Positions 157-11,467 of a DNA stretch of 11,593 nt are shown one piece after another. The notes under the pieces are model-generated. The model was given only the letters and a program-made list of their open reading frames with translations. It did not search any database and was not told where the DNA came from. Source of the DNA: a virus; the UHGV virus genome UHGV-1887975. One strand, written 5' to 3'. How positions within the stretch are numbered: position 1 is the stretch's first letter; each line of letters begins with the position of its first letter. The position numbers and the translations under genes were made by a program.

Positions 157-258
157 TTTTCTTTAGATGTTCGCCTCACATAATCTTCAAGTGATGTTCC
201 TTACATCTCCCTAGAGCGTTAAGATAGTTAACTGATTGAGTTTTCAGGGTATGAAAGG

Positions 259-924
259 ATGAGCAACACTACTGATTGGGGAAGCATGATAGCCAACATA
301 GTTATGGCTACTACCGCTGTCTGGGCTGCATTCAAAGCTAATGACTGGTTTAAAACCAAGCGTCTTGAGAGTGCTGAAAACTTCTATAAAGAAGTACACA
401 ATCTCCATAAACGTTACTATTCAGCTATCCAATACGTTGAGGATTCAAGAAGAATATTTGATAGTCAGTATGGGTTGCATTCGCCAATATCTGAACCTAA
501 AGACAAGTCATTGCAATGGGAGGTTAAATCGAACTCTTACAAAATCATCGCTGAACTAGATTATCTGGCATCGTCACTACAAATGATGGATGCAATGGGT
601 AACAAACTTAGCCCTAAATCGGCTTCACTGGTTAGTGATATGATGGAAGCACATGGACGATTCTGTAATGATGTGATGAACTTCAATGACTCAGTTTGGA
701 AGGTTATAAGGGCAGGTATAACTGAAGAGAACATCCCACATACGCGAGGCTATGTGAACGGCGATTACATGGCTATCCTTACCAGTATGGATGAACCTGT
801 AAGAATATCTTTTAAGTTAAAAGAAATCAGTTTTAAAGATTTTTACTTACATGAAACTACTATGCAGTCAGTAATAACGAGGCTGAAATCGCTTATCGCC
901 AGAACAGGTAAAAACAGGACATAA
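259..924 (+). CDS. Hypothetical membrane-anchored protein, 221 aa, with one N-terminal TM helix (about residues 9-25) and a helical soluble domain
   Basis: It is a long ORF and the first gene inside attL, on the same strand as the tonB promoter. The hydrophobic segment is MIANIVMATTAVWAAF. The SD (GAAAGG) abuts the ATG, so the exact start is uncertain. Confidence 0.7.
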   Translation: MSNTTDWGSMIANIVMATTAVWAAFKANDWFKTKRLESAENFYKEVHNLHKRYYSAIQYVEDSRRIFDSQYGLHSPISEPKDKSLQWEVKSNSYKIIAELDYLASSLQMMDAMGNKLSPKSASLVSDMMEAHGRFCNDVMNFNDSVWKVIRAGITEENIPHTRGYVNGDYMAILTSMDEPVRISFKLKEISFKDFYLHETTMQSVITRLKSLIARTGKNRT

Positions 925-1112
925 ACAGGTTAGTACCTATGCAATTTAACGGTATTTTTCCAAGTATCTATGCAATCCTACACAGATTCTATACAGTATC
1001 GACATAGTTTCCTTTTGGTATAACTTATTGAAATATATAAAGAATCTGTGAAGCCCCTTTTCAGGGTAAACTGTATCGTGTTAGTCGTCCCTCTCTCGAC
1101 TCCTAGAAAAGT

Positions 1113-1142
1113 GCTATATACAGGGCTATATAATGCTATATA
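1113..1142. repeat. Three tandem GCTATATA units (1113-1120, 1125-1132, 1135-1142), including a perfect TATAAT at 1129-1134
   Basis: Read directly, with a period of 10-12 bp. This could be a promoter cluster or an easily melted AT-rich element. Confidence 0.5.
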
Positions 1143-2591
1143 GATAGTTGGTCACATGGTGTAACTATCAAACTACTTAACAGTTTCCTACGTGAAAGTT
1201 AGAAAGTGATAGTTATAGTTACCTTGTCAAATCTTCGTAGTCCATTCTTAAAAAATCACTTACAGACACCTTAATATCTATACAGATTTCATGTAGAACA
1301 CGATTAGTGCGTAGAAGAGTCATTATGTTAAAAACGAACTGTATACGTATCAGTACTGATTTATAAGGGTTTTGTGTATTTGAAGATAAGAGGCTATACA
1401 GCACCTTGAGAGCATGTCTTCTAAGTCATTGATACATAAGGTCACAGAAGTTTGTGTCTGTTACAGAGAAAACTGGATAGGACTTCACAGAACTACAAAA
1501 TGTTACAGCTATTGATAGGTGAAATCTTCTTGATAGATGCCTTGAAGTGTGGTGAAGGTTTCTTGAGGTGGAGCTAAACAGATGCTATGAAGAAAGTCAA
1601 TAGTTGGTTATAGATATTTTAACTGCTTTTGCAAAGGGGGTGCTGTATCGTGAATCTGGGGTACTTAACAGCCATCAATCATGAGGTAGATTCTACCGAA
1701 TCAACTGTGTAGATATTTTTTAAGATTATCGGTGAAGGGGGAATGCAGAGGGGGGTACTACGATTTTTATAAAAATTTTCAGAAGCCAAATAACTACTGT
1801 GTATATTTTGCACAATCCTGCCAAACCTCATAGAAAGCTCTGTAGCGAGTTTTAACCCCATTTTTAGGGGTAACCTGTAGGGATGTACCACCCACCTTAA
1901 AATAAAGGGGTAAAATCGCTTAGAATGCGTTACAGAGCGTCTGAGAAGCTATATTCACAGATTTTACTAAAGTCTCAGACTTCTAAGTAGTCTTTTTAAC
2001 GGGAGGGTTCTTTCTCATGTATCACCCTCTCTTCCCGCTAAGTAAGCTACACAGACCTAGAGAACATGCCTTCACAGCATCTATATCAGGTCAGATTTAG
2101 AGGGTTTTGATAGAATTTTCAAAGGTACTTGACAGATAACTATGAAGTTGTTAGGAAGAATTGTTTAACGGGAGGAAAGATACGATATAACCCGAAGGGA
2201 AAGTATCATCTTAACAGTGATTGTAAGAGATACCTGAAAAGCTCCTCTTAACAGAACTACCAAGAAGAGAGGGAACGATAAGACCAGAGGTAGTGACCTG
2301 TTAAATAGTTCGTTTCAAAGCTCTTAAGAGTCTGTTAAGTAAGGGCTATGTGAACAATCTTACCATTTTGTCAATGCTCTTGTCTTTGACCTAAATCAAT
2401 AAAATGTATCGTTTGATATGGTTTTAAGCAAGATGGCTAAAAATCTTTTTAGAGGGGCGCTTCGCTTGTGTCACTATGTTCTTTCTCTCCCTGTCTAAGA
2501 GGGGGGTTACAGAGGTCTTTCAAGTCTCAATAGACAAACCGAGGAACGCAGGAAACCGAGGGAAGAAAAACTATTGTGATTACCCTGAACA

Positions 2592-2625
2592 AGGTCTGTA
2601 AAGGTCGTTTAAGAGGTCGGTTAAG
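2592..2625. repeat. Three tandem iteron-like units: AGGTCTGTAA, AGGTCGTTTAAG, AGGTCGGTTAAG
   Basis: Read directly. The units are contiguous with a period of 10-12 bp. Confidence 0.6.
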
Positions 2626-2749
2626 AAAGGAGCTTCCCTCTCTGGGGTTGTCGCTCTTCTCTCGCTTGGTGGATTGATTAGGGGGTATGTTATACAAGCC
2701 CAACTAAGAAGACCTCTGAAGCTTACCTGTGAAGAAGCTGAACAGCTAT

Positions 2750-2802
2750 TATATTGGGTGATTACAACTCATTGAAAAATAAGCATTTTTAGAAATCACT
2801 GT
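2750..2802. repeat. 53-bp direct repeat, copy 1
   Basis: 49 of 53 positions match 2844-2896, at an offset of 94 bp. Confidence 0.85.
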
Positions 2803-2843
2803 TAAGGTTGCAGAGTTGTCTGTGAGGAGACTTGTCTGCTCTC

Positions 2844-2896
2844 TATATTGGGTGGTTACAACTTATTGAAAAATAAGAACTTTTAGAAATCACTGT
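2844..2896. repeat. 53-bp direct repeat, copy 2
   Basis: 49 of 53 positions match 2750-2802. Confidence 0.85.
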
Positions 2897-2998
2897 CAGA
2901 GAGGTGAATACTTGATAGATACAGCTTTCCGGTTCTGTCAAGTCATTTTTTAATAGATAGCATAAAATGCTAAAGATACCCCTATACCATCACGTACA

Positions 2999-3026
2999 GG
3001 GGGTTTTGAAGGGGGTTTAACGGGGG
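2999..3026 (+). repeat. Three G5 tracts at 11-12-nt spacing: AGGGGGTTTTGA, AGGGGGTTTAAC, GGGGG
   Basis: G5 runs at 2999-3003, 3011-3015 and 3022-3026. The third run overlaps the last codons of the minus-strand small ORF. Confidence 0.6.
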
Positions 3027-3193
3027 TCTGTGTGGTCATTATCCTTAAGGTCAAGCGTCCATGTACGACCGAACAGTTTAAAGACAACAAGCACTCTGAC
3101 GAGGACGTAGCGAAGTAGCAGGCCTGCAATAAGTCCAATACCTCCACCAGCCCATACATCAGGTGACCCCAATTCTGGAGGGAGATTTACCAT
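3017..3193 (-). CDS. Small single-pass membrane protein, 58 aa (MVNLPPELGSPDVWAGGGIGLIAGLLLRYVLVRVLVVFKLFGRTWTLDLKDNDHTDPR)
   Basis: The ATG at 3193 is preceded by AAGGA with a 6-nt spacer on the minus strand. The protein has a clear hydrophobic helix, and the segment is locally GC-richer than its surroundings. The track's longer version (to 3235) begins at a TTG with no SD. Confidence 0.4.
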   Translation of the reverse strand: MVNLPPELGSPDVWAGGGIGLIAGLLLRYVLVRVLVVFKLFGRTWTLDLKDNDHTDPR

Positions 3194-3410
3194 TAAATTT
3201 CCTTGTAAGACGCTCTCAATCGCATTCTGACACAAAAAAGTACCTGACCTTATAGTTGACCTGAAGAGGCCATTTAACTCGTTACAGAGCGATTGAAGAG
3301 GTCTGTGTGCAATGCAATAACCATGTGACCACTCTCATAGCCACGCCTCATATTTTACTCTCCCCATAGAACCATTATACCACAGATGTTAATGAAATGT
3401 TAAAAAGTGC

Positions 3411-3439
3411 TTGACATTAGTCTTTGAAAATGCTAGTAT
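3411..3439 (+). promoter_or_regulatory. Strong sigma70 promoter for the rightward operon: TTGACA (3411-3416), 17-nt spacer, extended -10 TGcTAGTAT (3431-3439)
   Basis: Hexamers and spacing are read directly. It is followed by two TTAACA boxes (3450-3455, 3461-3466) one helical turn apart, in an operator position. Confidence 0.65.
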
Positions 3440-3487
3440 TGTATATAAGTTAACAGAGGATTAACAATTATAAGGACTAGCTTATGA

Positions 3488-4042
3488 ATGAACGACAGAG
3501 AATTTAGAGCGATGCTTCAGGCATCAAGAGAACGCAACAAGCACAACTCCTACGCTTACACAAACAACCCCACCAGCTACGAACTACCAGCCTTTTCCAA
3601 ATCCGAACGTAAAAGCATTGAAGCGGTCATTCGTAGCATTACGCCACGAGGCAGATATATGCCAACACGCAAAACAACAAAGAATAACTTAAAAACTTTC
3701 TTGATGAGTTTTGACAGCTACGAACAATTACCGTCACGAATTGAAGATGTAATTATCGGCACTTGTCGCAGCTTTGGAAGGGATAACTATCACCGGAAAG
3801 TTTTCTATTTGCTTCGAAGCCTTGATGAGATTAACTCAAGCACAGTGACGAGCCATCTTCAAAGACAAGCAACCAGACTTAGCCACGAGCTACCATCTGA
3901 TAAGTATTGCGCTAATTTAACCACCATTTGCAATAAAGTTATCGAGACAATCAATCATCATGTTGGGGTTGGTAATATCAGCCTTACGACCAGTGAGCCA
4001 GACTTTGAATTTGACGTATACGCACAAGCAGAGGAATTTTAA
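3488..4042 (+). CDS. Hypothetical protein, 184 aa
   Basis: It is the first ORF downstream of the 3411 promoter. Its stop lies 1 nt before the next start. The SD is weak or distant. Confidence 0.7.
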   Translation: MNDREFRAMLQASRERNKHNSYAYTNNPTSYELPAFSKSERKSIEAVIRSITPRGRYMPTRKTTKNNLKTFLMSFDSYEQLPSRIEDVIIGTCRSFGRDNYHRKVFYLLRSLDEINSSTVTSHLQRQATRLSHELPSDKYCANLTTICNKVIETINHHVGVGNISLTTSEPDFEFDVYAQAEEF

Positions 4043-4043
4043 A

Positions 4044-4325
4044 ATGGGAAATAAACACACACTAACCAGAGTTACAAAGACAGCCTTTGAAGAACTTAAC
4101 CGAATCAAAAACATTACAGGTCTGCCACACTCAGCAGTGATGAAGCTTGCAATTAACCGTGATATTAACGAGCAGGATTTGCTTAATAGTCGTTTAGAGG
4201 CAGCAAGACACCATATCAGGATTAAGCAAGATGACCTTGATAGTCTGAAATCTTTAAATGCTTTTGGACTGGATTTAGCAAGGTTACTAAGTATCAAAAT
4301 TCACAAATTAGCGATGGAGGTTTAA
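4044..4325 (+). CDS. Putative ribbon-helix-helix (CopG/Arc-like) DNA-binding protein, 93 aa
   Basis: The ATG at 4044 is preceded by GAGGA with an 8-nt spacer. The N-terminus HTLTRVTKTAFEELNRIKNITGLPHSAVMKLAINR follows the strand-helix-turn-helix pattern of CopG-type RHH proteins. The track's 3960 start overlaps the upstream gene. Confidence 0.7.
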   Translation: MGNKHTLTRVTKTAFEELNRIKNITGLPHSAVMKLAINRDINEQDLLNSRLEAARHHIRIKQDDLDSLKSLNAFGLDLARLLSIKIHKLAMEV

Positions 4326-4711
4326 TGTATGACTTTTATAAACATCGTGACCATTTGGTAAGATTTGACGGTAAAGTCTGGAAAGACGTAACACAAACCA
4401 ATAAGCCCAAGTTTACCCACCAGCAATTAGCCTCAAGATTTGATATCTGGGCTGAAGCACAAAAAGATAATGGTGATTTCGAGTTTATCAGAGGTTTTGA
4501 TTATGCTTACGAAAGCGACCTTAAAGACGCCATTGAATTAATGGAGAACTTCAACTCTATTAAAAATAGTGACAAGCACAAAGCCAACGGTAACAGATAC
4601 GATAAAGATTTAATCATTGATGCAATCACCAAAGGACAATCACAAAGTTATATTTCTGAGAAATACGGCTTATCACGTAGTCAATACTACAAGATTAAAG
4701 CGTCTGTGTAA
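4325..4711 (+). CDS. Hypothetical protein with a C-terminal helix-turn-helix, 128 aa
   Basis: TAATG overlap with the upstream gene and a GGAGG SD. The C-terminus ITKGQSQSYISEKYGLSRSQYYKIK resembles resolvase/terminase-small-type HTH motifs. Confidence 0.75.
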   Translation: MYDFYKHRDHLVRFDGKVWKDVTQTNKPKFTHQQLASRFDIWAEAQKDNGDFEFIRGFDYAYESDLKDAIELMENFNSIKNSDKHKANGNRYDKDLIIDAITKGQSQSYISEKYGLSRSQYYKIKASV

Positions 4712-4849
4712 GTCTGTGAGAATGAGTGAGACTCAAAGATGAGCTACCCTATTACTAAGGTGTCTCACTCCCTCTGTAACCCGCATGGTTACTGGCCTCA
4801 GAATGGCTATTTTGGCAGATTTAAGATGTGTTTTTATAGGATTTTAAAA

Positions 4850-5173
4850 ATGAATAATTTCCCACTACAGATTTTTATTGATACCGACACCGCCATGATG
4901 ATTCAGGCTTTCACTGATGTAGGTGTTAGCATTGACTTTGATAAGTTGTTAGAGTTAATGGCTGATNATNCNGANANCATCTNTGACTTTATTCACTCGG
5001 TGGAGTTTAACGAGCCTCGAATGATGTTACCAATTACAGACAGTAATATGAAAAGATTGGTTATTGAGCAAACGAACAAATACAGTATTTCCCCAGAGCA
5101 ATTTTTGAAAGGTGCTGTGACAATCCTGTACAGCGATAATATTTTGGTTACGGATTCCGTGAGGGTTCACTAA
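4850..5173 (+). CDS. Hypothetical protein, 107 aa, containing 6 ambiguous bases
   Basis: The ORF is in the frame of the track's 4739..5173 entry. The ATG at 4850 (MNNFPLQ...) is preferred because 4739-4849 holds two hairpins and encodes an atypical Cys/Trp/His-rich peptide. The start remains uncertain. Confidence 0.6.
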   Translation: MNNFPLQIFIDTDTAMMIQAFTDVGVSIDFDKLLELMADXXXXIXDFIHSVEFNEPRMMLPITDSNMKRLVIEQTNKYSISPEQFLKGAVTILYSDNILVTDSVRVH

Positions 5174-5250
5174 TGGGCTTAATAATTGCTTGGACGTTGC
5201 TTGGCTTATTTGTTGGTTGCTGGGTGGGTAACACAGTAAATAAGAATTGA
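5173..5250 (+). CDS. Tiny hydrophobic peptide, 25 aa (MGLIIAWTLLGLFVGCWVGNTVNKN)
   Basis: TAATG start/stop overlap with the upstream gene. GAGGG SD at 5161-5165 with a 7-nt spacer. The sequence is TM-like. It falls below the ORF-track length cut-off. Confidence 0.45.
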   Translation: MGLIIAWTLLGLFVGCWVGNTVNKN

Positions 5251-5273
5251 TGTTATCAATCTGTTAAAAGCTG

Positions 5274-5302
5274 TTGACAAATAACCTTAAGCATGAGATG
5301 AT
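5274..5302 (+). promoter_or_regulatory. Candidate sigma70 promoter: TTGACA (5274-5279), 17-nt spacer, GATGAT (5297-5302)
   Basis: The -35 is perfect but the -10 is mediocre. It lies in a 495-nt intergenic gap. Confidence 0.3.
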
Positions 5303-5308
5303 GGTAAT

Positions 5309-5496
5309 AGGGGGCAACTCTTCCTGAATTAAACTATTAATCATTCTACATCAATGATAGTTATTCTGAGTTGGAAAGGTGCAATGCTTTTCGTCATGGC
5401 CTATTTAGCCCACACTAGATAGGCTATCTCAAAAAGTCTTTGTTTATTCATTGAATCCTTTACAGATTGCCCTAATCATGAGTTAGGGCGTTTTTT
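5309..5496 (+). ncRNA. Candidate sRNA of about 190 nt, between the 5274 promoter and the 5469-5496 terminator
   Basis: This rests only on the promoter-terminator pairing in an intergenic region. It contains an internal stem GCCTAT/ATAGGC and a 22-aa hydrophobic mini-ORF (5354-5422) that has no SD. Confidence 0.25.
5469..5496 (+). terminator. Rho-independent terminator: GCCCTAA / TTAGGGC stem, 7-nt loop, then GTTTTTT
   Basis: The 7-bp perfect stem (5469-5475 / 5483-5489) and the T-run (5491-5496) are read directly. Confidence 0.65.
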
Positions 5497-5667
5497 AAGA
5501 GTTTTTAAAGAAATTTCTTCACCAGCCCTTTATAGCGTTTTAGTTATCTAGGGCTTTTTCAGCTTTTAAAAAGCATACTTGGCAAACGCTTTTAAGTCTC
5601 TTCTAAGTTCGTAGGCTGTCAGGTGTGCTTTTTAAAAACTGAATATTACTTAGAAGAGGAAAAAACA

Positions 5668-6378
5668 ATGACAAACGATTTATATATTAACGGCAGAAAG
5701 ATTGATAGCTTCGGGGACTGGTCACCACAGGGTGAACATCCGCTACATACTATTCAGCGTAAAGAACACGATGAAAGAATTAAGCTTGAGCAAGAGTTAA
5801 AGATGTCACCAAAGGTAATTTCCTTTGTGTCTCCTGAGCCTCAAGAAATGCCTGATGTATGCAAAACTGAAGCACTATTTAATCTTGAGCGTGAATATTA
5901 CCCACTGCTAAAAGCACAGCGTATTAAACTAGATGACGCTTACAGCAAAGTTACCCTGATGCAATCAGCTATTGAGCCATCAGAATTTGAGATTCAGGAT
6001 GAATTGTCACAGAAACCATTTGTCTATTACAAATATGAAGACAATGATGGTTTTGGTACTTTTCCTGAGAATATCCCAGACGTGATTAATAATCTTCCTG
6101 ATGGATATCGAATTGTGAAGATGGTTAAAGCTTCAAGAGGTGCTGGTCAGTTTATTTTCATGACCGATAGGAGCGATGAAGAACTCTGTGAAATTGCTAA
6201 ACAGAACATCTTAGCATCACGTAACAAGCAACTTGAAAATGTTAAGTTGTATCTCTCAAGAGAGCTTCAGGCTATGAAAGAGCTTGTTAGTGAATATGAA
6301 TCACAGAAGAAGATTGCTATGCAGGCTGATATTGAGCAGTTAGTGAAGATTTCTCAGAAATATGCAAAGGCACTTTAA
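5668..6378 (+). CDS. Hypothetical protein, 236 aa, with a coiled-coil-like C-terminus
   Basis: The ATG at 5668 is preceded by AGAGGA with a 7-nt spacer. The track's 5623 start is a GTG inside the GTGTGCT motif. Confidence 0.75.
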   Translation: MTNDLYINGRKIDSFGDWSPQGEHPLHTIQRKEHDERIKLEQELKMSPKVISFVSPEPQEMPDVCKTEALFNLEREYYPLLKAQRIKLDDAYSKVTLMQSAIEPSEFEIQDELSQKPFVYYKYEDNDGFGTFPENIPDVINNLPDGYRIVKMVKASRGAGQFIFMTDRSDEELCEIAKQNILASRNKQLENVKLYLSRELQAMKELVSEYESQKKIAMQADIEQLVKISQKYAKAL

Positions 6379-6402
6379 CTATGAATTAAAAGGAGGTGGT
6401 GA

Positions 6403-6606
6403 ATGATTGATTTAACAGAACGCTATGAGCTTATTAAAGCAATTAGTGAACGATTGAAAGAACAACCCAACAAACCAAAACGAATCAAATCATCCACCTC
6501 TAAGCAAAAGAATAGAATCAGAAGAATCGCTAAATGGTGTCTTGATAAATTACCAAGTGATTGTCAGATTGTCGGTGAAGATGGTAATTATTATCTGGTT
6601 AGGTAA
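6403..6606 (+). CDS. Small basic hypothetical protein, 67 aa
   Basis: Strong SD (AAAGGAGGTGGTGA then ATG). Lys/Arg-rich centre. Followed by a terminator. Confidence 0.7.
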   Translation: MIDLTERYELIKAISERLKEQPNKPKRIKSSTSKQKNRIRRIAKWCLDKLPSDCQIVGEDGNYYLVR

Positions 6607-6631
6607 AAAGATTGGTTGGGTAAAAATCAAC

Positions 6632-6672
6632 GGGAGAGATTATCGAGTGACATCGGTAGCTCTCCCTTTTTT
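6632..6672 (+). terminator. Rho-independent terminator: GGGAGAG / CTCTCCC stem followed by TTTTTT
   Basis: Stem arms at 6632-6638 and 6660-6666, and the T-run at 6667-6672, are read directly. Confidence 0.7.
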
Positions 6673-6700
6673 GTATATGAGATAGTCTTCTATCGAATCC

Positions 6701-6802
6701 TGTGTGCTACGTGATGATTCGGATAAGAATTATCCTCATGAAATCTGTAAAACTAATACCCACACTGAAAAATAGAATTTACGTACAACACGCTTAAAGA
6801 GG
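6701..6802 (+). promoter_or_regulatory. Conserved GTGTGCT-box intergenic element, copy A, upstream of the tape-measure gene
   Basis: It shares GTGTGCTACGTGA (6702-6714) and the block TACCCACACTGAAAAATAGAATTTACGTACAACACGCTTAAAGAGG (6757-6802) with copy B. The two ends can pair (6701-6714 with 6779-6792, with 2 internal mismatches). Confidence 0.55.
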
Positions 6803-6812
6803 TGAAACATGA

Positions 6813-8936
6813 ATGAGCAAATTCACAGTTGATAGTTTTATCGTTGAGCTAGGCTTCAATGAAAACGTTATTAAGGGACTGCAAAGAGTTGAAAAGGCAG
6901 CTTTGCAGTCAGCACAAAGAATTGAAAAGAACCTAAATAAAGGTTTCAGGATTAATACAAAGCAGCTTGATAGTAATTTAACGGCTTCTTTAGGGCAGCT
7001 TGAAAGGAAGTTTAATAAGGCCTTTGACAAGATTGAACAGAGAGCAAGAAATACTAAAGCTTTCCAGTTTACCACCAGATTTAATGACACTGTTAATCCT
7101 CCAAAACAACCAAGACAGCCACGAATTAGCGGAAACAGAGCAATCACAGCAGCTTACTCAGCGAATATGAGCAAGCTAAAAGGCCTTAACCCAATTGTCG
7201 AGAAATACATTAAGAGTCAGTTTTACGGGCTATCTGCTAAAGCCGGGTCAATGGATTCTTCAAAATTCAATGAGAAGTTAGCTCAGTTAAACGCTTCAGT
7301 CAGAGAAGCAATTGCTAAAGCCAGAGGTCATACATCCACCAGCATTAATGGTGACAGAGCAGCTAATAGTCTTGATAACCTGTCTTCAGCAGCAGTTAAA
7401 ACAGCAGGTGCATTTATCTCAATGCAGGCTGTATTAGCCAGTTATCAGAAGATTATGGAAATTGGTTTACAGCGTGCAAGTGCTGAACGTTCAATTGATT
7501 TCGTATTTGATAAAGATGCAGGTCAGGTAAAAGAGTTCACAAAGTCATTAGCTCAAACAACGGGTTTAGATATCGCTGAACTGCAATCACAGTTTGCTGG
7601 TTTTGGTGCTTCAGCTAAAGAGTCTATGGGTATTCAAGGTTCTGAAGAACTTTTTAAAAATATGATTGGCTATGCTCGTCTGATGGGGAGAAGTGAAGAA
7701 GAGATTAAGCGAGCACTGACAGCATTATCACAGATGGCTGGTAAGGGTCAGATTATGGCTGAAGAGCTTAAGGGGCAACTGGCTGAAGCTGTTCCTGGTA
7801 TGGTTCAGGTATTCGCTAAAGCAACCGGAAAGACTGAACAGGAATTATTTGATGCCATGAAGAAGGGGGCTTTAAAATCTGCCGATACTCTTCAGAAGGT
7901 CACTCAGGAACTGAATAAACAAATCACCGCTAAAGGTGGCTGGAAAGCCATTTCAGAAAGTACTCAGGCACAACTAGGGAACTTGAAAAACTCTTGGAAT
8001 ACCACGCTTGATAGTATCTTCAGAGGTTCTGAAAATGGTCTGCAAGATTTTACACGAAGCCTAACAACGCTTTTAAACGCTCTTGGTGGAAGTGGTAAAA
8101 GTCTTGGTGAATCTCTTGGTAGTCTCATGACTTCTATGTCACATGGTGTCGATAGTCTGACCGATATTAGTTACAAGGTGCGAGCGTTCTTTGATGAGGT
8201 GACATTAGCTTACCGTTCACTAAATGACACTCAGAGGAAAATTGTTGATGGTTTATCTGATGGGTTAATTGATGGTTTGAAGATGCTTGCTGTGGCTGTT
8301 ACTGCTCAAAAGGCTGCAAATGTAGCTGGAGGCTTGTTAAACCTTGCAAATGCTGTTACTTCATTCGGTGATGCTGTTAATAAAGCTAAAGCTGGCAAGG
8401 CTGGTTCTTCAGGTGGTGCGCTAAGTAAAGTCGGTAGAGTTGTCCTTTATGCTGAGTTGGTAAACTTTGCTCTTGATAATTTAAACCCTGAAGCAGCTAA
8501 GAATCCGAACTTACACCAATCAGGTATTGGTACAGAAACAAACTTCAATCCTGAATACAAAGGCGATTCTAAACCAAACCAAATTAATGAGGGGTGGGCT
8601 AAGATTGGTAGTTCTATCGCTGACTGGTTTAATGGTGCAGCTAATAAAATTGCTAACTTACAAGAACCGATGAATAACTTCGTAAATAACACACAATCAA
8701 CTCCACCAGCTATCGACACGGTGAATATCAATGCTCAATTAGCTATGGCTGTATCAGAGTTAGGAAGAAAGGTTGATGCTTTAACAGTAGAAGCTCGGAA
8801 GCCTTTATCAGTTAATATCAAAGGTGAAGCAATTGTTAGGCCGGATGAGCCATCTTTCTTTAATTTCAATCAATCAGCTAATGACCAGTTCACGCAGGAT
8901 ATGCTCTTAAGTTCAAGCTATCCAGAGGAAGAATGA
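6813..8936 (+). CDS. Tail tape measure-like protein, 707 aa
   Basis: The central segment ALSQMAGKGQIMAEELKGQLAEAVPGMVQVFAKATGKTEQELFDAMKKGALKSAD matches the conserved tape-measure core motif known from lambda H/TP901-type TMPs. The protein is long, helical and Ala/Gly/Ser-rich. GAGGTG SD with an 8-nt spacer. Confidence 0.85.
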   Translation: MSKFTVDSFIVELGFNENVIKGLQRVEKAALQSAQRIEKNLNKGFRINTKQLDSNLTASLGQLERKFNKAFDKIEQRARNTKAFQFTTRFNDTVNPPKQPRQPRISGNRAITAAYSANMSKLKGLNPIVEKYIKSQFYGLSAKAGSMDSSKFNEKLAQLNASVREAIAKARGHTSTSINGDRAANSLDNLSSAAVKTAGAFISMQAVLASYQKIMEIGLQRASAERSIDFVFDKDAGQVKEFTKSLAQTTGLDIAELQSQFAGFGASAKESMGIQGSEELFKNMIGYARLMGRSEEEIKRALTALSQMAGKGQIMAEELKGQLAEAVPGMVQVFAKATGKTEQELFDAMKKGALKSADTLQKVTQELNKQITAKGGWKAISESTQAQLGNLKNSWNTTLDSIFRGSENGLQDFTRSLTTLLNALGGSGKSLGESLGSLMTSMSHGVDSLTDISYKVRAFFDEVTLAYRSLNDTQRKIVDGLSDGLIDGLKMLAVAVTAQKAANVAGGLLNLANAVTSFGDAVNKAKAGKAGSSGGALSKVGRVVLYAELVNFALDNLNPEAAKNPNLHQSGIGTETNFNPEYKGDSKPNQINEGWAKIGSSIADWFNGAANKIANLQEPMNNFVNNTQSTPPAIDTVNINAQLAMAVSELGRKVDALTVEARKPLSVNIKGEAIVRPDEPSFFNFNQSANDQFTQDMLLSSSYPEEE

Positions 8937-8950
8937 TTTCTTATATATAT

Positions 8951-9026
8951 CCGTGTGCTACGTGAAATCTTCTGAACGGATATACCCACTAAAAATTATT
9001 TTTTACGTAGCTCACGCTTAACAGAG
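8951..9026 (+). promoter_or_regulatory. Conserved GTGTGCT-box intergenic element, copy B, upstream of the 9102 gene
   Basis: GTGTGCTACGTGA at 8953-8965 and TACCCACTAAAAATTATTTTTTACGTAGCTCACGCTTAACAGAG at 8983-9026. The ends form a 16-bp stem with one mismatch (8952-8967 with 9001-9016). Confidence 0.55.
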
Positions 9027-9101
9027 AAAATACTTATATATCAAAGGTTTGGTTAAAAATGATTAAAATACACTAAGCCTTTGAAATCAAAGGAGAATTT
9101 A

Positions 9102-9872
9102 ATGATTTACACTAATCAGCTTCGTTACAGTGGCAAAGATGGTGTTTACTTCCATCTACAAGGCCAACCAGATAATTTCTTGTCACTATCAGCAACTGAG
9201 AACATGGAATATGACAGCCCTATGATGGTGACCACTCAAAATATGCAATCAGGGCAGACTGTAACAGATAATGTAATGCGTTCACCAAGAACTATTTCAA
9301 TCAGTGGTGTGGTTGTGGTTGGTGAATCCGGTAGTATCCTTATCTCAAGAGATAATAAGCTGGTGGAAAACTTCATAGACACTCTTGAAAACTGGCGTGA
9401 CCAGAAGCAAATTATCTCAGTTGTCTGTAAAGATGGTATTAAGATTGACGACTCAATTATTACAAGCTTTAAAGCCTCTAAAGATGTTGGTATTTCAAAC
9501 GGCCTAAGAATCCAGCTAACTTTTCAGGAAATCAACTTTAAAGCTATCGTAGGGCAAACTGATATTTCGACTGCTACTGGCAAGACCGCTACCACGAATG
9601 ATGGTGGTGCTACTTCTAAGAAGAATACAGGGAATACTACGACAAGTCTTGGAAGCCCTATGCTGACCTGTAAAGAGCTTTTTAGCTATTCGGCAAGTAA
9701 GTTATCAGATGAAGCGCTAAAAGCCCGTGTAACGTGCTCTAAGAGCGTTAGCGTTAAAAATGGTGAGAGCACCTTCACAGCCTCAGCTAATGAGCAAGCT
9801 TCAAAGGTGCTTAAGTCGGGTAATGCTTTACGGAAGTACTCTGTGAATCCGAATAAGAAGGGCACTTATTGA
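9102..9872 (+). CDS. Hypothetical tail-associated protein, 256 aa, named by position downstream of the TMP; the C-terminal half is Thr/Ser/Gly-rich
   Basis: The ATG at 9102 is preceded by AAGGAG with a 6-nt spacer. The track's 9081 start is a TTG. The function is inferred only from synteny with the TMP. Confidence 0.7.
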
Positions 9873-9881
9873 GACATAAAA

Positions 9882-9899
9882 AGGGGCTTCATAGCCCCT
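9882..9899 (-). terminator. Hairpin AGGGGCT / AGCCCCT between convergent genes, followed by a T-run on the minus strand; terminator for the integrase gene
   Basis: 7-bp perfect stem and 4-nt loop. The minus strand reads AGGGGCTATGAAGCCCCTTTTTAT. Confidence 0.65.
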
Positions 9900-9904
9900 G
9901 AAAA

Positions 9905-11425
9905 TTACAGTTGATAAGCGTCAATATCCAGTAGCTCTTTATCAGCAATTTCAAAGATTGGTGACCCATCATTTAGCGGTAACGGGTTTGTAGGTATGGT
10001 TATTTCAGTGTCGTTCTGTAGCGTTACAGTTACCGAATCCTTACCCAATGTCAGCCCCTTTAGATGCTTGGACAAAATCAACTGACACTCGACACGACCC
10101 GCTTTAGTTGTCAGGTCAATATCTTTAAGCTGGGGTAGTTCCTTATCAGTGAGTGAAGCCTTACGCCTCATGTTATCAATCGTGGTCTGTAGCTCTGTGC
10201 GCTTCTGGTTCAGTTCCTTAAGCTGAATTTTTAGTTCATCAATATCATCCATCTCAAGAAGTAGGGCGGTAGCTTTCTTGATTCTGGTTGTGACAATTTC
10301 AACCTCATGCTGTAGAGATGCAATCTTCCCCTCTGCTTCTCCATCATTCCCCACGTCAATCATCCCCAGAAAATTATCAATCATCCACTTATCAAACGGT
10401 TTACGCTTCAACGGAGGAACATCACAGCGACCATCAAGATGGTTATTGCACCGATAAACGCCCTGATACTTATTCTTAGTCCCTGTAGGGTGAACACTAG
10501 CCCCGCACTGACACCTAAACAGACCTTTGAAGATGTTAATCGTTAATGGATTATCACTTGCAGGTGTACGGCCTATACGGTTCTTACCAAGAATCTCTTG
10601 AGCTTTATTGAACGTTGAAGCATCTATAGCGGCTTCGTAGTAGTTCGGTATAGCGGGGCGGTCATTACGTTGTGATGCTGGTAACGTGCCTATCGTTGTC
10701 TCTGACCTTAAGATGGTGCGTACAGAGTGAACACTAAACCCGTTAGCATCTTTACGGCGACTAAACGACTTTATACCGTTGCTTTGAAGGTGACGGGCGA
10801 TGTTATGCAGACTTTCACCACTTAGCAGCAGCTTGAAAATCAGTCTTACAGTCTCAGCGTGTTCATTGAGTTTAAAAGTATCGGGGTCAATCCATCCGGG
10901 AACCATCTTTGTTAAACGTTGTTCACCAGCAAGGGCAAGTTTTGCACGTTGCTCCCATTTCTGAGAAACACGGAAAGACTTCTGCTTAGATTCCTGATGC
11001 GCTATGTAGGCTTTGACACGCTGGATGATTGAGATTCCTAAATCATCGGCTAAAGCATCCTTTGTGTAGATAAGACCATCTTGTAGCGTGTGAATCTCTA
11101 ACCCGTTGCCTAAGATGCGATTCATCAAGGCTTCTGTTTCAAGGTGTTCTAAGCGGCCTATACGGTCGATACTCTCAACAAGCAAAATCGTACCTTCTGG
11201 AAACTCCCCAGACTCAATACGGGCTAACATGTCACCAAACTGACCAGTAAGATGCTTACCTTTGTAACCGGATAGGCCTTCATCACTGAAAGACGCTACT
11301 ACTTGAGCATCGCTATTCTTCTTCAGCCACTGCTTGAACAGGTCGTTTTGTCGTCTGGTTGAATCTGCACCTTCAGCGCCTTGTATAGCTGAACTGTACC
11401 GAAGGTATGTAATTACGCTCCTCAT
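9905..11425 (-). CDS. Large serine recombinase (integrase), 506 aa
   Basis: N-terminal catalytic motif YLRYSSAIQ with downstream VESIDRIGR. Cys-rich zinc-ribbon segment CQCGASVHPTGTKNKYQGVYRCNNHLDGRC. C-terminal coiled coil. The gene lies adjacent to attR. Confidence 0.9.
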   Translation of the reverse strand: MRSVITYLRYSSAIQGAEGADSTRRQNDLFKQWLKKNSDAQVVASFSDEGLSGYKGKHLTGQFGDMLARIESGEFPEGTILLVESIDRIGRLEHLETEALMNRILGNGLEIHTLQDGLIYTKDALADDLGISIIQRVKAYIAHQESKQKSFRVSQKWEQRAKLALAGEQRLTKMVPGWIDPDTFKLNEHAETVRLIFKLLLSGESLHNIARHLQSNGIKSFSRRKDANGFSVHSVRTILRSETTIGTLPASQRNDRPAIPNYYEAAIDASTFNKAQEILGKNRIGRTPASDNPLTINIFKGLFRCQCGASVHPTGTKNKYQGVYRCNNHLDGRCDVPPLKRKPFDKWMIDNFLGMIDVGNDGEAEGKIASLQHEVEIVTTRIKKATALLLEMDDIDELKIQLKELNQKRTELQTTIDNMRRKASLTDKELPQLKDIDLTTKAGRVECQLILSKHLKGLTLGKDSVTVTLQNDTEITIPTNPLPLNDGSPIFEIADKELLDIDAYQL

Positions 11426-11467
11426 GGTGATAAACTCCCATGCAATTGATTCTCATTTAAAGATAAG

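Follow-up and report, generated by a model that had tools for sequence, protein, structure and literature searches.

The genome-end repeat word of Felix-O1-type phages recurs at the promoters and in the non-coding region of a probable phage satellite

Background

The satellites P4, SaPIbov5 and EfCIV583 mimic the packaging signals of their helper phages, and PLE requires a partial mimic of the ICP1 pac site in its non-coding region, where PLE and ICP1 can be aligned over 89 bp at 71% identity with an identical core of 14 bp (bioRxiv 10.1101/2024.04.22.590561). Here we analyse the non-coding region (NCR, positions 925-3487) of a chromosomal island in DNA of the virus genome UHGV-1887975; the window, meaning the whole stretch of DNA analysed, is 11,593 nucleotides long. 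The island is probably a satellite of Felix-O1-type phages, and its NCR shares sequence blocks as well as a short repeat word, TAACA(A/G), with the region around the direct terminal repeat (DTR) of these phages.

PLE integrates by means of a large serine recombinase. Many short, helically phased words near the cut sites are a feature of the terminal repeats of T7-type phages and of the arrays that are bound by terminase small subunits (pac/cos). Felix-O1-type phages are widely used in the typing of Salmonella and E. coli, in biocontrol and in therapy. A preliminary description of the window had pointed to a family of words centred on ACAG, scattered through the non-coding region and recurring at operator positions, and had proposed a single DNA-binding protein encoded by the island, possibly of the ribbon-helix-helix (RHH) or helix-turn-helix (HTH) type, that would autoregulate its own promoter and coat the non-coding DNA.

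Results

The non-coding region matches the terminal repeat region of Ounavirinae phages

When compared by blastn with 50,697 phage records the NCR matches 308 of them, mostly Ounavirinae, through the intervals 1596-1730 and 2245-2320 and with E values down to 1e-11. Nearly all of these matches lie in unannotated phage DNA, often at the ends of the records. The phage region concerned contains the DTR, which is about 0.55 kb long and is placed here by three sets of records: MET-P1-301 has an identical 544 bp at both ends, equivalent to approximately 14642-15188 of Felixounavirus HY02; the records of H12 and CRP22 start at HY02 14621; and Mooglevirus HP1 has an annotated repeat_region (1-570) which aligns to the same interval. 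In addition, PhageTerm detected direct terminal repeats according to the announcement of H12 (PMC11737134). The packaging recognition and cleavage signals themselves are putative in this region.

Two stretches of the NCR are similar to this terminal region of the presumed helper. The right DTR junction has its homolog at 1596-1720 on the plus strand (74% identity to JLBYU28 over 128 nt, E 2e-15), where the final ~55 bp of the DTR are represented by 1596-1650 and the unique sequence just past it by 1650-1720. This junction homolog includes TTTTGCAAAGGGGG (1627-1640), which is 100% conserved in 30 relatives of the island, and a cassette of about 27 nt, ATGAGGTAGATTCTACCGAATCAACTG (1678-1707, not assigned to a strand), which holds the perfect palindrome GGTAGA-T-TCTACC and is identical in JLBYU28 in 26 of 26 nt. 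Across satellites and phages the palindrome cassette is present, absent or inverted (L020 2349-2375; inverted in the Citrobacter islands, as in L025 7582-7608; related islands and contigs are given by L numbers throughout). A further plus-strand block, 1765-1797, is colinear with the phage sequence past the DTR junction and includes an exact match of 15 nt to HY02 15275-15289. The DTR interior has its homolog at 2245-2320 (plus strand; 80% identity over 79 nt to HP1 241-317 and 86.5% to JLBYU28), a block which is present in other satellites with up to 94% identity. In relative L011 the match to the phage DTR junction extends over 178 nt (E 1.8e-22). If the 9- to 12-mers shared with the NCR are counted along the whole 86-kb phage, the DTR region is the top window (z 3.9-4.7), and two satellite coding regions that served as controls give no such peak.

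The phage region is also marked by a word of its own. In the 1.7-kb non-coding region of HY02 (14155-15850), TAACA[AG] occurs 27 times on one strand as compared to 1.7 times in shuffles (z 20), mostly as CTAACAAG, CTTAACAG or CTTAACAA and mostly at spacings of 9-13, 20 or 22 bp. In and around the DTR the word is mostly phased by 11 bp, and its densest clusters lie just inside both DTR boundaries. Homologs of HY02 14155-15850 are found in 267 phage records; several GenBank records end within the array, and in some of them spurious small open reading frames (ORFs) are annotated there. A weight matrix made from 32 phage sites gives 13 hits of at least 8 bits in the NCR versus ~3.8 in shuffles. 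Among the NCR sites are two plus-strand copies of CTTAACAG within 2210-2264, where 2246-2264 (TCTTAACAGAACTACCAAG) agrees in 18 of 19 positions with two neighbouring phage DTR repeats that are phased by 11 bp, and a set of 12-bp-phased TCTTAAC-like repeats at 2596-2630, which read TTCTTAACCGACC, TCTTAAACGACC and TTTACAGACC on the minus strand, are assigned a period of 12 by TRF and are hit by the phage weight matrix. The tandem copy number of the 12-bp unit AGGTCGGTTAAG (2602-2626) varies between relatives, with extra copies in L003 and the most in L007. Finally, the 12-bp repeats GCTATATA(C/G) at 1113-1148 (plus strand, TRF period 12) are homologous to the CTATATA block that lies beside the HP1 terminal repeat (83% identity to HP1 1001-1035), and the ACAG which they contain at 1120 is 99% conserved.

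Paired TTAACA words bracket two divergent promoters

The right end of the NCR holds two promoters that stand back to back. The leftward promoter, TTAACA-18-TATAAT, lies at 3403-3374 on the minus strand and matches the consensus in 11 of 12 positions, and the rightward one, TTGACA-17-TAGTAT, lies at 3411-3439 on the plus strand, agrees with the sigma-70 consensus in 10 of 12 positions and drives the main operon. The hexamers of both are 94-100% conserved in 42 relatives.

Each promoter is accompanied by a pair of TTAACA words that are 11 bp apart. The minus-strand pair TGTTAATGAAATGTTAA (3387-3403) overlaps the leftward -35 hexamer and is located just upstream of the rightward one; it matches positions 7-23 of the HP1 DTR in 16 of 17 nucleotides, and its words are 94% and 98% conserved. 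The plus-strand pair GTTAACAGAGGATTAACAA (3449-3467) lies downstream of the rightward -10 hexamer and, with the spacer included, matches the phage DTR sequence TAACAGAGGTTTAACAA in 16 of 17 positions and H12 in 16 of 18. Its positions 3450-3455 are 100% conserved in 42 relatives, and GTTAACAGA is retained in all Citrobacter islands. The preliminary description had already recognised GTTAACAGAG (3449), followed at 3461 by another TTAACA, just downstream of the -10 of the 3411 promoter, and this reading of the plus-strand site holds. A geometry as in repressor operators, that is, paired half-sites with a fixed spacing of 11 bp at a promoter, is seen both at 3387-3403 and at 3450-3466.

ACAG words are in excess throughout the non-coding region

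The excess of ACAG was measured against 1,000 dinucleotide-preserving shuffles of 925-3487. The NCR contains 29 copies of ACAG compared with 12.0 +/- 3.1 in the shuffles (z 5.5), a number reached in none of the 1,000, and 20 copies of CTGT compared with 10.5 (z 3.2; reached in 3 of 1,000), so that the strands are unequal, with 29 against 20. The extended words deviate as well, T.ACAG[AC] with 14 copies versus 1.6 in shuffles (z 9.9) and TT.ACAG with 9 versus 1.1. The commonest 9-mer of a shuffle never exceeds 3 copies, whereas in the real NCR GTTACAGAG has 4. Per kb, ACAG occurs 11.3 times in the NCR versus 5.8 times in the coding remainder of the window. The enrichment noted by eye thus survives the dinucleotide-shuffled null, and the earlier hand count of 31 ACAG and 20 CTGT in 902-3466 is exact.

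As for the individual words, the four plus-strand copies of GTTACAGAG (1460, 1929, 2506 and 3281) and the five of CTTAACAG (1176, 1664, 2210, 2247 and 9017) are where they had been placed, and to them can be added reverse-complement copies of GTTACAGAG at 4772 and of CTTAACAG at 2332 and 2799. TTCACAG was correctly located at 1484, 1954 and 2071 but is not confined to these three copies, as it also occurs outside the NCR at 6822 and 9774. The triple repeat of AAACAGG reported over the stop codon of ORF221 has to be reworded: AAACAGG itself is present only twice (912 and 923), and the triple exists as (G/A)AACAGG at 902, 912 and 923. These three plus-strand words (902-929), spaced by 10-11 bp, lie where ORF221 ends and the NCR begins; only the last two fall within sequence that is shared with relatives, and the third is ATCAGG in 14 of 32 of them.

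The repeated bipartite site, reported for 1460-1491, 1929-1961 and 2047-2077, appears non-random. Every TTCACAG of these sites has a further ACAG 23-25 nt upstream (P ~2.5e-4 under uniform placement, in a post hoc test). On the plus strand the second and third sites read GTTACAGAG-N16-TTCACAG (1929-1961) and CTACACAGAC-N14-TTCACAG (2047-2077), and in the latter CTACACAGA is retained in 28 of 33 relatives. The spacings between inverted ACAG and CTGT words within 900-3500 are all different and none is preferred. Two familiar sources of such words were considered and set aside: the same interval holds no CTGT-N8-ACAG palindrome of the LexA (SOS) box type, and when the ACAG words are taken as variants of the sigma-70 -35 hexamer (TTNACA), only 1665-1692 has a passable -10, for which reason this was dropped as a general explanation.

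The ACAG words are a mixture with different conservation

When each site is compared with its own flanks (+/-15 nt) in 49 distinct relatives, the conservation of the ACAG core exceeds that of the flanks by 5 points on average and does so at 21 of 29 sites (Wilcoxon p 0.002). Footprint-like cores stand out from variable flanks at 2509 (1.00 versus 0.76), 2251 (0.91 versus 0.71) and 1282 (0.97 versus 0.81). The clearest of them belongs to the plus-strand GTTACAGAG copy at 2506-2514, whose ACAG core is conserved in 100% of 43 relatives as compared to 76% for the flanks, and whose TTACAG is retained in the Citrobacter islands. CTGTTAAG at 2799 is 99% conserved. Of 30 relatives compared at the 3281 copy, 25 retain CGTTACAGA, and none has lost the ACAG core. 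At position 2214, 22 relatives have CTTAACAGT and 21 have CTTAACAAT, which is the A/G choice of the phage repeat. However, ACAG ranks only sixth among 65 frequent 4-mers in core-minus-flank conservation, behind TTAA and GTTA. An earlier test with 9 relatives (P ~0.001) was replaced by the tests with 49 relatives and with the Citrobacter islands, since many sites lie in one highly conserved cassette and its P value is regarded as inflated for this reason.

The Citrobacter islands, whose NCRs are ~76% identical, separate the words. TAACA/TGTTA is preferentially conserved there (0.876 versus a background of 0.760, P 0.014), whereas generic ACAG is not (0.743 versus 0.760, P 0.64). Enrichment follows the same division, with z values of 0.6, 2.3 and -0.3 for ACAG and a mild excess of TAACA[AG] (z 1.9-3.0). 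Conservation in related islands, which the preliminary description had put forward as a check, is therefore found for ACAG cores among the 49 relatives but does not extend to generic ACAG in Citrobacter, and the single motif family resolves into a TAACA(A/G) class and a set of lineage-specific words. On this comparative evidence the ACAG words appear to be a mixture of conserved, putatively helper-derived TAACA(A/G) sites and of GTTACAGAG, TTCACAG, CTATACAG and CTACACAG, the lineage-specific members being located mostly in a cassette found only in the E. coli lineage and in the inverted ends of an element that we call X.

The cassette in question (1250-1600, plus strand) contributes 8 of the 29 ACAG copies (1262, 1282, 1398, 1444, 1463, 1487, 1505 and 1578), among them the bipartite site 1460-1491. 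It is present in ~24 of 49 relatives with up to 99% identity and is missing from L007, L010, L011 and all Citrobacter islands. Element X is ~105-130 nt long and occurs twice, on the minus strand at 1822-1948, where it is bounded by inverted G(T/C)TACAGAGC words and includes the GTTACAGAG at 1929, and on the plus strand at 3202-3305, where it holds the GTTACAGAG at 3281. L002 and L005 have one more copy, upstream of the 107-aa gene.

Candidate binding proteins

The preliminary description had named two island proteins as possible binders. Of these the 128-aa HTH product does not qualify as a general one, because its gene is accessory: among relatives whose fetched DNA covers the gene slot and which retain the NCR, it is absent in L009, L010, L011 and L022 and present in L004, L008 and L024. 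Its HTH hits are, moreover, below threshold. In some relatives an HNH_3 gene and a 59-71-aa gene stand in for it. The gene of the 93-aa protein is universal, like that of a 184-aa protein, the Citrobacter islands included, yet the RHH fold proposed for the 93-aa product is not demonstrable. Its N-terminus reads as beta-alpha-alpha by eye, and weak hits to DndE and the P27 small terminase (E 0.02-0.03) stay below the Pfam and NCBIfam thresholds. AlphaFold2 models reach a pLDDT of 50 for the 93-aa protein, which makes the model unusable, and of 61 for the 184-aa protein, and Foldseek finds no match in the PDB at E <=0.001. The search for a binder by Pfam, NCBIfam, PHROGs, PADLOC and PDB sequences yielded sub-threshold hints only.

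In tblastn comparisons of the satellite proteins with phage HY02 only the tape measure protein (TMP) and the Dit-like protein match. Given that these are the only two with HY02 homologs and that the satellite's own candidates are unclassifiable, a helper-encoded protein that binds the DTR repeat would be no less likely than a satellite-encoded one.

The island and its relatives

The island of ~11.3 kb (163-11430) is inserted in the E. coli chromosome between yciI and tonB. It encodes a large serine recombinase of 506 aa, a TMP of 707 aa (6813-8936), a Dit-like protein and several small proteins. The Dit-like protein is 71% identical to gp068 of Felixounavirus HY02 and its gene ~81% identical in DNA; in Felixounavirus the gp068 gene directly follows the TMP gene. 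The satellite TMP shares 70% identity with HY02 gp067 over the N-terminal 47 aa and the C-terminal 17 aa and 35% in the middle, a pattern as though the interaction ends had been retained and the ruler swapped. None of the 10 island ORFs matches a capsid or terminase family, 6 of the 10 have no significant family match at all, and the small proteins match no Pfam, PHROG or NCBIfam family. The serine recombinase together with the Felixounavirus-type TMP and Dit-like genes leads us to regard the island as a probable satellite of Felix-O1-type phages.

Additional support for mobility comes from the metagenome contig L049 (ERZ506742 NODE_633, 11,233 bp, with a 55-bp terminal overlap), which joins the integrase end to the NCR end (junction ~5462/5463). 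In complete E. coli genomes the two island ends of the L049 type are never contiguous, and the integrase half abuts wrbA; L049 would therefore represent an excised circular or a tandem form. Two other contigs, L064 and L072, were considered as a tandem dimer but look like a chunk-boundary duplicate. Metagenome contigs end at variable places, and one that starts at window position 1652 is not interpretable as marking a cut site. A search of IMG/VR for virion-derived linear contigs, whose ends would mark cut sites, gave only four contigs, of 25-55 kb and at least two of them with chromosomal flank.

Islands that share this gene order but occupy several integration sites and use different recombinases occur in E. 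coli, in E. albertii and in Citrobacter (L001, L022, L024, L025-L030), and they look like an undescribed family of satellites of Felix-O1-type phages. Our literature search found no description of such an element, and the one match among the GTDB species representatives was E. albertii.

Upstream of the TMP and Dit-like genes there are GTGTGCTACGTGA boxes at 6702-6714 and 8953-8965 (with another at 5623); the GTGTGCTACGTGA 12-mer is absent from HY02, so that the boxes were not simply copied from there together with the genes. An isolated plus-strand CTTAACAG (9017-9024), also upstream of the Dit-like gene, had been placed inside copy B of a GTGTGCT box. The word is present, but the corresponding place upstream of the TMP gene (~6791-6802) has CGCTTAAAGAGG, and so it is not shared there. 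The 221-aa ORF (259-924) between the left attachment site and the NCR is missing from all 11 relatives that were examined, but nearly identical islands have it, for instance that of E. coli UTAK-18 (NZ_CP157132). Neither Pfam, PHROG and NCBIfam nor PADLOC contains a match to it, and it may represent cargo specific to the lineage. Scattered N bases at 4967-4983, within the 107-aa ORF, are a sign of a draft-quality source sequence.

Further features of the non-coding region

The NCR lies at the left end of the island, is not assigned to a strand and is unannotated in RefSeq in a near-identical genome; in most relatives it begins directly at the left island end. Among 5,426 complete E. coli genomes, 544 match at least part of it, as a rule with an identity of 80-90%, and 66 cover at least 80% of its length. 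It is a mosaic in which conserved blocks alternate with cassette slots (~1247, 1815 and 2474) that hold, depending on the relative, an AP2-HNH endonuclease, a Dam-like methylase, a resolvase or small ORFs. The slot genes comprise an AP2-HNH homing endonuclease, a Dam-like methylase with an HTH protein, and a small resolvase (L004 2457-2981, L005 3041-3707, L025 6929-7480). A direct repeat of 77 nt is present in two plus-strand copies (2727-2802 and 2820-2896), each of which ends in a CTGT word (2799 and 2893).

Hidden coding was considered for the 33-aa ORF at 1414-1515 and rejected, as it shows second-position changes in relatives; only the 58-aa ORF on the minus strand (3020-3193) looks real. 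It is annotated in relatives, is preceded by the leftward promoter (3403-3374) and followed by a terminator (3002-2979), and has no match in Pfam, NCBIfam or further family searches. Judged from a hydrophobic stretch seen by eye, its product may be read as membrane-like, and it might act as a toxin, in exclusion or in the manner of a holin.

The NCR contains no tRNA and no Rfam match at E <=1, the sole Rfam match being a chance-level miRNA outside it. RNA folding of 1330-1730 is worse than that of shuffles (z = +1.06). The folding value and the lack of an Rfam match make a function at the level of DNA likelier than one as structured RNA and support the view that the ACAG sites behave like protein-binding sites in double-stranded DNA.

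Discussion

We tentatively favour the interpretation that the NCR is a conserved and putatively protein-bound control region of a satellite, whose TAACA(A/G) sites copy the genome-end repeat of the helper for packaging and/or induction. According to this model the core word, (C)TTAACAG or TAACA(A/G), would be the terminal-repeat word of the Ounavirinae, placed in the satellite as 11-12-bp pairs at promoters, as an array (2596-2630), as single sites (1664, 2210, 2247, 2332 and 2799) and beside patches that are homologous to the DTR. The helper protein that recognises the genome ends would bind the satellite sites, too. It could be a terminase-associated, an end-binding or a regulatory protein of the helper, or else its part may be taken by a satellite protein of the same specificity, and its binding would mark the satellite DNA for packaging by the helper and/or switch the divergent promoters upon helper infection. 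The remaining, lineage-specific ACAG words would probably serve a second, satellite-specific binder. Protein binding, the identity of the binder and the role in packaging or induction we infer from word content, conservation and homology. One may go further and see in the NCR the genome-end module of an undescribed, widespread, PLE-like family of satellites which parasitise virulent Felix-O1-type phages and are both activated and packaged through the end-recognising protein of the helper; in this extended form the proposal is doubtful.

Several observations weigh against our interpretation. The left boundary of the phage DTR has no homolog in the satellite beyond matches at the word level, and the order of the homologous blocks differs from that in the phage, so that a terminal repeat of the satellite cannot be drawn. 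Part of the junction match is due to the 27-nt cassette, which is variable in both partners. In the 2.5 kb of the satellite NCR TAACA[AG] occurs 6 times on the plus strand (z 2.3) and 5 times on the minus strand (z 1.7), and is thus sparser than in the phage array and found in both orientations. Some of the CTTAACAG sites have no phage repeat aligned with them, as for instance at 1664, where the phage has CTACCAAGCAG, and most of the ACAG excess is made up of words other than the phage repeat. A role of the Ounavirinae TAACA(A/G) array is not described in the literature searched. Finally, Felixounavirus is assigned as the probable helper from gene homology only.

But could all of these words not simply be the sites of one satellite repressor, the 93-aa RHH-like or the 128-aa HTH protein, which autoregulates at 3449-3466 and coats the NCR, as was proposed from inspection of the window? 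The near-invariant paired sites that flank the divergent promoters, the better conservation of ACAG cores than of their flanks in E. coli relatives and the constant spacing of 23-25 nt in the three bipartite sites would fit such a protein, and the universal 93-aa gene with its beta-alpha-alpha N-terminus and weak DndE and P27 hits would offer a candidate. We nevertheless consider a single repressor unlikely. The words differ at key positions (TTAACAG, TATACAG, TTCACAG and GTTACAGAG) and have neither spacing nor symmetry in common; the 128-aa gene is missing in four relatives that retain the sites; the Citrobacter islands possess the 93-aa and 184-aa genes, yet their generic ACAG is neither conserved nor clearly enriched; ACAG is only sixth among the frequent 4-mers in conservation, behind TTAA and GTTA; and DNA binding is demonstrable for none of the proteins by sequence and structure searches. 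Alternatively, much of the excess of words may record history, in that segmental duplication and recently exchanged cassettes created identity by recombination and not by selection. This would account for the GTTACAGAG copies at 1929 and 3281, which lie in the two copies of element X, for the two CTGT words (2799 and 2893) that belong to the 77-nt direct repeat, and for the 8 ACAG copies in the presence/absence cassette 1250-1600, whose identity of up to 99% is as expected of a recently spread module; the mosaic nature of the NCR with its inserted homing-endonuclease, methylase and resolvase genes points in the same direction. Duplications explain few copies, however, as most sites have unrelated flanks, and history alone leaves the footprint cores in variable flanks (2509, 2251 and 1282), the pairs that flank the promoters and the match to the phage repeat unexplained. 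Nor is co-conversion by a homing endonuclease supported as the source of the phage homology, since the satellite AP2-HNH gene has no close relative in Felix-type phages (<=41% identity, the best matches being in T4-like phages). That history rather than function explains much of the excess is quite unlikely.

A replication origin of the satellite, in which the phased repeats would be iterons for an initiator of the satellite or of the helper, has a precedent in PLE, whose origin is located in the non-coding region next to the pac mimic (bioRxiv 10.1101/2024.04.22.590561). It would agree with the presence of a large conserved non-coding region beside the first operon, with the tandem repeats of 11-12 bp at 1110-1142, 2602-2626 and 2998-3027, one of which is variable in copy number, and with a role of the NCR at the DNA level, given that it folds no better than shuffles as RNA. 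Yet we judge an origin to be very unlikely, since the repeats are short, of three kinds and present in 2.1-2.9 copies, as opposed to the at least three repeats of one 17-22-bp unit that define iterons, and since the ACAG words are spread over 2.5 kb instead of forming a compact array. Furthermore, the island proteins contain no Rep-, primase- or helicase-type domain, and the homology is to the terminal repeat of the phage, a region that nothing marks as a phage origin. It is extremely improbable that the NCR is transcribed as a structured or regulatory RNA with ACAG as a processing or binding signal. The strand bias of ACAG over CTGT and the strong leftward promoter directed into the NCR are compatible with such an RNA, and PLE is reported to use a small RNA. 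Then again, CTGT is enriched as well, the TAACA sites occur in both orientations, the leftward transcript has its terminator at 3002-2979 after the 58-aa ORF, and the folding and Rfam results given above speak against structure.

If our proposal is correct in its extended form, packaging mimicry would be seen for the first time against a helper whose DNA is packaged from direct terminal repeats, and parasitism of virulent phages in the manner of PLE would extend to the enterobacteria. The NCR is matched at least in part in ~10% of the complete E. coli genomes, and relatives of the island occur in Citrobacter and E. albertii; a common element that copies genome ends and brings replacement tail genes would, if the interpretation holds, be a factor of resistance or interference for which the target strains of Felix-O1-type phages should be screened. 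The intervals 3387-3403, 3450-3466, 1596-1797 and 2245-2320 offer short DNA targets in the search for whichever protein recognises the genome ends of the Ounavirinae. More generally, a motif family spotted by eye can be a mixture, here probably of one conserved, helper-derived word and of words specific to a lineage.

How, then, does the island relate to the known systems? Like PLE, it would be the satellite of a probably virulent myovirus, it encodes a serine recombinase, and it has a large non-coding region that can be aligned to the packaging region of the helper. Compared with the 89 bp of the PLE alignment, the main match here comprises 128 bp at 74% identity with an identical core of 26 bp, and a second block of 80-94% identity is added. 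Different from PLE and the ICP1 pac site, however, the helper presumed here packages from a DTR, and what would be mimicked are the DTR interior and the DTR junction. Unlike PLE the island also re-uses a short phased DTR repeat at its promoters and carries tail genes (TMP and Dit-like). Scans with Pfam, PHROG and NCBIfam revealed no family common to island and PLE proteins, which were not compared directly; the PLE core includes, for instance, RepA, TcaP, Gpi/GpsA/GpsB and CapR. Host and helper differ as well, PLE being a satellite of the virulent myovirus ICP1 in Vibrio cholerae, and the likeness is one of architecture and strategy only.

With P4, whose helper is P2, and with SaPIbov5 the island shares the principle that a satellite copies a recognition sequence of the helper so that the helper terminase accepts the satellite DNA, which in the present case is putative. 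The cos sites of those satellites are single and compact and belong to temperate helpers, whereas the similarity found here is patchy, extends over ~700 bp with its blocks reordered and involves a multi-copy repeat phased by 11 bp, for which a binder is only hypothetical. The Ounavirinae array itself resembles the arrays of T7-type phages and of pac and cos sites in layout, although the sequences are unrelated. Finally, the two hexamer pairs, 11 bp apart, bracketing back-to-back promoters and nearly invariant, are much like the operators of RHH or HTH proteins. They differ from typical operators of this kind in that the hexamer is common to the genome ends of the presumed helper and in that members of the family can do without the candidate HTH gene.

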